Below are positions 6,886 to 45,232 of a DNA stretch of 64,000 nucleotides, in pieces. Each line of letters starts with the position of its first letter. Position 1 is the first letter of the stretch. The notes under the pieces are model-generated. The model was not told where the DNA came from and did no database searches. It saw only the letters and a list, made by a program, of their open reading frames with translations. Origin of the DNA: Escherichia coli (GTDB lineage Bacteria > Pseudomonadota > Gammaproteobacteria > Enterobacterales > Enterobacteriaceae); assembly GCF_048403405.1 (NCBI RefSeq), contig NZ_CP183129.1. The stretch is one strand, 5' to 3'. Made by a program: the position numbers and the translations under genes.

Positions 6886-7093
6886 TACTTTCTTATAAAT
6901 TAATACAGATTAATCCTGGTTATTTGCTTTATTAATCACCAGTCATCCGGTATAGTTCTTCATAATCTCTGCAAAATCATCGTGTTGTAATATTCTCTCA
7001 TTACTCTCCATCAAATTTTCTTTTTTTCTCCATAATTGGCGCAAAAGTGTTTTTTACACTTTCATTGTTTTACCGTTGCTCTGATTAATTGAC

Positions 7094-7788: not shown

Positions 7789-9289
<1,501 letters not shown>

Positions 9290-9304
9290 TGTTGACTCCG
9301 AATG

Positions 9305-9320
9305 CTGGTTATCTATCCAG
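9305..9320 (-). promoter_or_regulatory. Candidate LexA (SOS) box upstream of cho
   Basis: ctgGTTATCTATCcag matches CTG-N10-CAG, 16 nt upstream of the cho start; cho is a known SOS gene. Confidence 0.5.
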
Positions 9321-9440
9321 TGTAACAGGCGGGGAGCGATTAAAAAAGAGGCGGGTCGATGACAAAGGTTACACCGTGAGACGTGCTACGCCTGTCAGTC
9401 CTATTCGACTCATGCAATATATTGAATTTGCCTAGTTTTG

Positions 9441-9480
9441 TGGGGCGAATAAGGCGTTCACGCCGCATCCGGCGTGAACA
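9441..9480. repeat. REP-type (repetitive extragenic palindromic) element between cho and nadE
   Basis: ggcgaataaggcgttcacgccgcatccggcgtgaac; characteristic GCCGGATG-type palindrome. Confidence 0.6.
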
Positions 9481-9518
9481 AAGTACTCTTTTTCGCACAA
9501 ACCAATATGTGCAAATTA

Positions 9519-10346
9519 TTACTTTTTCCAGAAATCATCGAAAACGGTAATTGGCGGACGGCGTTTATGTTCGGTTTTCAGATACCAGTTCTCTATTGTT
9601 CTGGCGACCTGTTCAGGTAGGTTTTTCCCTTCCAGATAGTCGTCGATATTGTCATAGGTCACGCCGAGTGCCACTTCATCTGGCAGAGAAGGGCGATCAT
9701 CTTCCAGATCGGCCGTTGGGGCTTTCTTATAAAGGTGTTCCGGGCAACCTAATGCCGCCAGTAACTGTTTACCCTGGCGTTTGTTGAGACGATACAGCGG
9801 ATTAATGTCCGTACCGCCGTCACCATATTTAGTGAAGAATCCGGTAATGGCTTCTGCTGCATGATCGGTGCCCACCACGACACCGCTGGTCATACCCGCA
9901 ATGCTATATTGTGCTTTCATCCGCTCACGCGCTTTTTCATTGCCACGGACAAAATCGCTCAGTTCAATGCCTGCTTCCCGCAATGCCTGCTCGCTAGCCA
10001 ATACCGCGCCCTTGATATTAACGGTTAATACGCGATCCGGTTGAATAAAGGCAATGGCATCCTGGCAATCTTGTTCGTCGGCCTGAACACCATAGGGCAG
10101 GCGTACGGCAATAAATTGCAGTGATTCGTTGCCGGTCTCCTGGCGCAGCTCATTAATCGTCATCTGGCACAGCTTTCCGGCAAGCGTGGAGTCCTGACCG
10201 CCGCTGATCCCGAGCACCAATGATTTAATGAACGGATAAGTTTGCAGGTAGCTTTTCAGAAAATCGACACTACGACGAATTTCCTCTTCAGCATTAATCT
10301 GCGGTTTTGCGCCCAGCGCCTTTATTATTTGTTGTTGCAATGTCAT
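9519..10346 (-). CDS. nadE: NH3-dependent NAD+ synthetase
   Basis: 275-aa ORF with PP-loop motif (SGGQDS). Confidence 0.95.
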
Positions 10347-45003: not shown

Positions 45004-45232
45004 TTTGTTCTTCCCGTGATGCAGACATAATTCTATGAAAGCATAAATTAAAAACGCACAGAAGCGTAGAACGTTATGTCTGGTTTATAAATGAACCTTC
45101 AATTTTATTTTTTATGAAAACAGCATTTCATTTTTATGGTTTCGTTTATACCGATGGTTTATGTGGAAATTGTCTAAGAGAGCAGATTTGCGCAACGCTG
45201 GGATCAGTCTTAAAAAGTAAAAAAATATATTT

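Follow-up and report, generated by a model that had tools for sequence, protein, structure and literature searches.

The cho (ydjQ) gene lies on the minus strand at 8402..9289 of the window, by which we mean the whole 64-kb stretch of Escherichia coli DNA that was analysed. Its product, Cho, is a homologue of UvrC and the nuclease for the 3′ incision in nucleotide excision repair. The coding sequence begins with a GTG start codon and encodes a protein of 295 aa, as given by the ORF list, RefSeq and NCBIfam. Against the NCBIfam equivalog NF007833 the protein scores 578.8 bits (cutoff 367), with residues 1–287 of 295 covered. UvrC models match the N-terminal part only, with scores that fall under their cutoffs. 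The region 8300–9600 is 100% identical in several complete E. coli chromosomes, in which the annotated features are ves, cho and nadE, and the RefSeq label in the genomes that are identical to this stretch is 'cho: excinuclease Cho'. The lexA gene itself is absent from the 64-kb window.

At its 3′ end cho meets ves, which runs on the plus strand at 7804..8442. The two genes run towards each other and share 41 bp at their 3′ ends (8402–8442), and the same overlap is found in K-12 (1824362..1824402). Salmonella, Citrobacter sedlakii and Intestinirhabdus are without ves; in these spy follows directly after cho.

On the other side of cho lies nadE. We have aligned 11 loci, comprising that of E. 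coli together with ten orthologous nadE–cho loci from eight further genera, whose Cho proteins are 75–84% identical in a protein search. The ten are those of C. sedlakii, C. freundii, Salmonella enterica, Intestinirhabdus alba, Leclercia adecarboxylata, Kosakonia cowanii, K. sacchari, Enterobacter hormaechei, Yokenella regensburgei and Pseudenterobacter timonensis. nadE is upstream of cho and co-oriented with it in all the loci examined. The start codon of cho is preceded by a Shine–Dalgarno sequence GGAG (9296..9299, minus strand), 6 nt before the GTG, and this is invariant at a fixed spacing in the 11 loci.

The site upstream of cho

On the plus strand positions 9305–9320 read CTGGTTATCTATCCAG; the minus strand, which is that of cho, has CTGGATAGATAACCAG. 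The earlier note had described this as a fit to CTG-N10-CAG situated 16 nt upstream of the start of cho, and the sequence bears out both statements. Read on either strand it has that form, as a 16-bp imperfect palindrome (9320..9305 on the minus strand), and the proximal base of the box at 9305 and the G of the GTG at 9289 are 16 positions apart, with 15 nt between them. This core is contained within the full 20-bp LexA site CACTGGATAGATAACCAGCA at 9303..9322, for which the consensus is TACTGTATATATATACAGTA.

The site has been published. A full-text literature search with the literal 16-mer found it in PMC3009722, a study in which MEME was applied to the 100 nt upstream of UV-induced genes of MG1655, with cho among those genes. 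The cho entry in the LexA motif table of that paper is TACACTGGATAGATAACCAGCATTC, and all 25 of its 25 nucleotides are identical to 9324..9300 of the window on the minus strand. Thus the published LexA site of cho is the one seen here and does not lie elsewhere. In K-12 MG1655 the SOS box of cho (ydjQ, b1741) is the same 20-mer within the same 25-mer, at the same distance from the same GTG. There the 16-mer is located at 1823484..1823499 and b1741, likewise encoding 295 aa from a GTG start, at 1823515..1824402. The box itself is without difference between the window strain and K-12, while a few bases further upstream differ, such as C for T at 9333 of the window.

The regulation of cho is also documented. 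Table 1 of PMC6590174 places the gene (as ydjQ) under 'Known SOS box', on the authority of Fernandez de Henestrosa 2000 and Courcelle 2001, and PMC3820734, citing Fernandez de Henestrosa 2000, calls it LexA-regulated. Ciprofloxacin raises the level of cho mRNA (log2FC up to 1.59; PMC11002266), and Salmonella ydjQ, which has one LexA box with a heterology index (HI) of 6.69, is induced 3.3-fold by nalidixic acid (PMC8072944). The induction of cho is modest, at about 3-fold (PMC8072944, PMC11002266). No ChIP evidence for LexA at cho was found in the literature search.

The published site, the induction reported in the literature and the matrix score presented below together support the earlier suggestion of a candidate SOS box belonging to an SOS-induced cho. 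We assign 9305–9320 as the LexA operator (SOS box) of E. coli cho (ydjQ) with a probability of about 0.96; the LexA- and damage-dependent regulation is taken from the literature, the binding of LexA from secondary citations, and the site, its score, its identity with the published site and its conservation are derived here. No observation speaks against the assignment. Both the site and its interpretation are already known, and belong to textbook knowledge of cho/ydjQ as an SOS gene. In front of cho the window has a complete SOS operator with no difference from that of K-12, so on DNA damage the strain, like K-12, should induce Cho, the alternative nuclease for the 3′ incision in nucleotide excision repair.

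The SOS box of ruvA, CGCTGGATATCTATCCAGCA, is similar to that of cho. Both are of the CTGG...CCAG sub-type, in which position 4 of the 16-mer is G and not the consensus T, and both have CAGCA as the right flank; on the matrix described below they score 18.65 (ruvA) and 19.56 bits (cho). They differ in the gene that they precede and in their interior, being separate operators within one regulon.

The likely promoter and the nadE–cho spacer

How would LexA act at this position? In the undamaged cell a LexA dimer bound to the imperfect palindrome, directly upstream of the ribosome-binding site of cho and overlapping its likely promoter, would keep transcription of cho low. On DNA damage RecA–ssDNA filaments stimulate the self-cleavage of LexA, whereupon the operator would be vacated and cho induced.

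The left arm of the box is overlapped by a predicted extended −10 element, TGtTACACT (TGnTAYACT; 9319..9327, minus strand), that resembles the extended −10 element TGnTATAAT. The sequence CTGyTAyACTG is invariant in the 11 loci save at the two y positions. The last four bases of TGnTAYACT coincide with the first four of the 20-bp LexA site; its TGyTA part falls outside it. A scan of 9150–9560 for a two-hexamer sigma-70 promoter found no −35/−10 pair, and the missing match would fit a promoter that relies on TGn and not on a −35 element. We put at about even odds the proposal that TGnTAYACT is a −35-independent extended −10 promoter, from which transcription would start inside the box near 9312 to give a 23-nt leader. 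Such a start is what the established geometry of promoters predicts for a −10 hexamer TACACT at 9324..9319. This would place the 16-mer at about −8 to +8, where bound LexA would exclude RNA polymerase. If this reading of the element is true, neither the operator nor the −10 element would be free to evolve without the other. The architecture of the cho promoter is the sole part of this system without visible coverage in the cited literature, and RegulonDB or EcoCyc may record it.

Further upstream, 21 nt from the box, is the block GCCTCTTTTTT (9342..9352, minus strand). It is near-invariant in the 11 loci while the sequence flanking it varies on both sides. Its T-run falls at the −35 position of the predicted promoter and is a poor match to TTGACA. 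The block probably forms the end of the nadE terminator, because in three other genera (K. sacchari, Leclercia and Intestinirhabdus) it is found directly after a G+C-rich hairpin. In some genera it makes up the 3′ half of a canonical terminator, of hairpin and T-run, that follows nadE. No hairpin adjoining it is evident in E. coli, C. freundii or K. cowanii, and neither scanning nor folding called a canonical terminator of hairpin and T-run between nadE and cho in E. coli. The sole terminator-like match in the scan of 9150–9560 lies inside cho, at 9194..9179. 'Motif 2' of PMC3009722 (CCGCCTCTTTT), upstream of cho, includes GCCTCTTTTTT.

The nadE–cho spacer contains a REP-like hairpin GTTCACGCCGGATGCGGCGTGAAC with an 11-bp stem at 9455–9480 on the minus strand, just past the nadE stop codon at 9519–9521. 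The 186-nt spacer folds better than 200 of 200 shuffles (z = −3.2), with the REP hairpin and a second stable hairpin.

These features bear on a different role for bound LexA, in which it would serve mainly as a roadblock to read-through from nadE, and would not act by occluding a promoter of cho's own. Such a role would be in keeping with the position of nadE, which here lies 230 nt upstream and which is co-oriented with cho in all the loci examined, with a spacer in which no canonical terminator was called in E. coli, and with the failure to find a two-hexamer promoter. Yet the conserved TGnTAYACT, like an extended −10 element, overlaps the box at every locus. Moreover, several genera have a canonical G+C hairpin and T-run before the box that would stop transcripts from nadE, and in E. 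coli the REP hairpin and the second stable hairpin lie between the genes. LexA bound at an SOS box as a rule represses by occluding the promoter, and this too counts against a roadblock. We consider it very unlikely that LexA works mainly by blocking read-through, and prefer repression by occlusion of cho's own promoter.

Matrix score and chance expectation

How specific is the match of the cho box to the LexA consensus? The bare pattern CTG-N10-CAG occurs 23 times in the window, compared with 11.7 ± 3.3 expected from shuffled sequences. Taken alone it is weak evidence that does not discriminate, and since it is found so often we replaced it with a matrix constructed from other sites. This is a symmetric matrix of 20 columns made from 17 E. 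coli LexA boxes, being the 18 sites in Table 4 of PMC3009722 minus that of cho.

With cho excluded in this way the 20-mer at 9303–9322 scores 19.56 bits, the highest of the 63,981 positions in the window. When each of the 18 known sites is scored leave-one-out, the cho box takes 10th place, with those of yebG and sulA on either side. The other 22 matches to CTG-N10-CAG score from −20 to +8 bits, most of them below 5 bits, except that at 22405, which is a ydjM box (15.2 bits). The exact probability of a score of at least 19.56 bits is 1.5e-7 per position, corresponding to an expectation of 0.0095 per window and of ∼0.7 per genome of 4.6 Mb. When the window was shuffled 300 times with its dinucleotides preserved, no shuffle attained this score.

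The cho box has a Berg–von Hippel HI of 5.7 on the 18-site matrix, or of 7.9 when cho is excluded from it, where the known sites range from 0.3 to 9.4; these figures rest on the matrix built here, and are not numerically comparable with published HI values. The published rule of thumb for LexA boxes is HI < 15 (PMC11002266). By both matrix rank and HI the likeness to TACTG(TA)5CAGTA lies within the span of proven sites. The earlier note had proposed scoring with a LexA weight matrix as a check, and the outcome is a high score at the top of the window and inside the range of proven SOS boxes.

Could the palindrome have arisen by chance, with no regulatory role? The bare pattern is common enough for this, at about twice its expected frequency (23 against 11.7), and most of its occurrences are poor LexA sites of below 5 bits. 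The full site, however, scores 19.56 bits, with 0.0095 expected per window and no shuffle reaching it. In addition, the box has the same distance to the start of cho and invariant arms in the 11 loci, and it is the published cho site. We regard a chance origin as extremely improbable, and retain the assignment as the LexA operator of cho.

The second and third best matrix matches of the window form a pair at 22403–22440. These are two LexA-box-like 20-mers that overlap by 2 nt, reading on the minus strand TACTGTACGTATCGACAGTT (15.16 bits) and CACTGTATAAAAATCCTATA (12.16 bits). The pair lies 15–52 nt ahead of ydjM, a minus-strand gene with its annotated start at 22388 that encodes a metal-dependent hydrolase (NF008651). 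In E. coli ydjM is a known SOS gene with tandem boxes. For Salmonella ydjM two LexA boxes are reported (PMC8072944 Table 1). Weaker matches are found at 45106–45125 (TGCTGTTTTCATAAAAAATA, 10.2 bits) and at 6925–6944 (GACTGGTGATTAATAAAGCA, 8.8 bits). Both are most likely chance matches, because about 1.5 matches of at least 10 bits are expected by chance per window.

Conservation of the box and the start of cho

The box is preserved across the enterobacteria compared. In each ortholog locus of ∼3.3 kb the best match to the cho-excluded matrix occupies the corresponding position, and in 10 of 10 loci the 16-mer ends 14–15 nt before the GTG. The ortholog boxes score 15.1–22.2 bits, and the runner-up match of each locus is at most 8.6 bits. 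The box of S. enterica ydjQ, TACTGGATGAATAACCAGTT, occupies the orthologous position 15 nt before the GGAG-GTG start, and has a score of 22.15 bits here; it differs from the E. coli box by two interior substitutions. The CTG and CAG arms are invariant in the 11 loci. The interior is variable, with 6–7 of its 10 positions kept as A+T, and examples from the orthologs are GATAGATAAC, GATGAATAAC, TATGCCTGAA, TACAAGTAAC and GATGGGTAAA. Of 5425 E. coli genomes, 4705 carry the 40 nt surrounding the box without change. Two variants were sampled, in which the changes lie only outside the 16-mer; one of these has TACACT changed to TATACT.

Judged from the aligned loci, the pattern of substitution is that expected of a LexA site, and not of a hairpin. 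That the palindrome is merely LexA-like, and is in truth the operator of another dimeric regulator or a hairpin in the cho leader RNA, is the least probable reading of all: many helix-turn-helix dimers do bind palindromes of 16–20 bp, and the CTGG and CCAG arms could pair as a 4-bp stem, but such a stem with an 8-nt loop is negligible, the ortholog arms (CTGG..CCAG, CTGT..ACAG or CTGT..CCAG) keep the LexA consensus and not base pairing, every ortholog scores 15–22 bits on a matrix made from other LexA sites only, and cho is SOS-like in expression studies (PMC8072944, PMC3009722, PMC11002266).

The comparison of genera also touches upon the start codon of cho. For three of the species cho is called from an ATG within the LexA box (ctggATGaat), and the resulting proteins have 302 aa in S. 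enterica, 301 aa in E. hormaechei and 296 aa in K. sacchari. An in-frame ATG is present within the box in 8 of the 11 loci; in E. coli this triplet reads ATA. Counted from the in-box ATG, the invariant GGAG-N6-GTG is 27 nt further downstream. We considered this ATG as a real alternative start and rejected it, given the ATA of E. coli and an in-frame stop codon between the ATG and the GTG in C. freundii. Further against it, there is no Shine–Dalgarno sequence before the ATG, and GGAG-N6-GTG is invariant. The in-box start of cho in Salmonella, E. hormaechei and K. sacchari is very probably a start-codon miscall, and the probable correction of these calls is a small practical gain from the cross-genus comparison. 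The 'distance to ATG' of 0 that is given for ydjQ in PMC8072944 arises because the Salmonella gene model starts at the in-box ATG.
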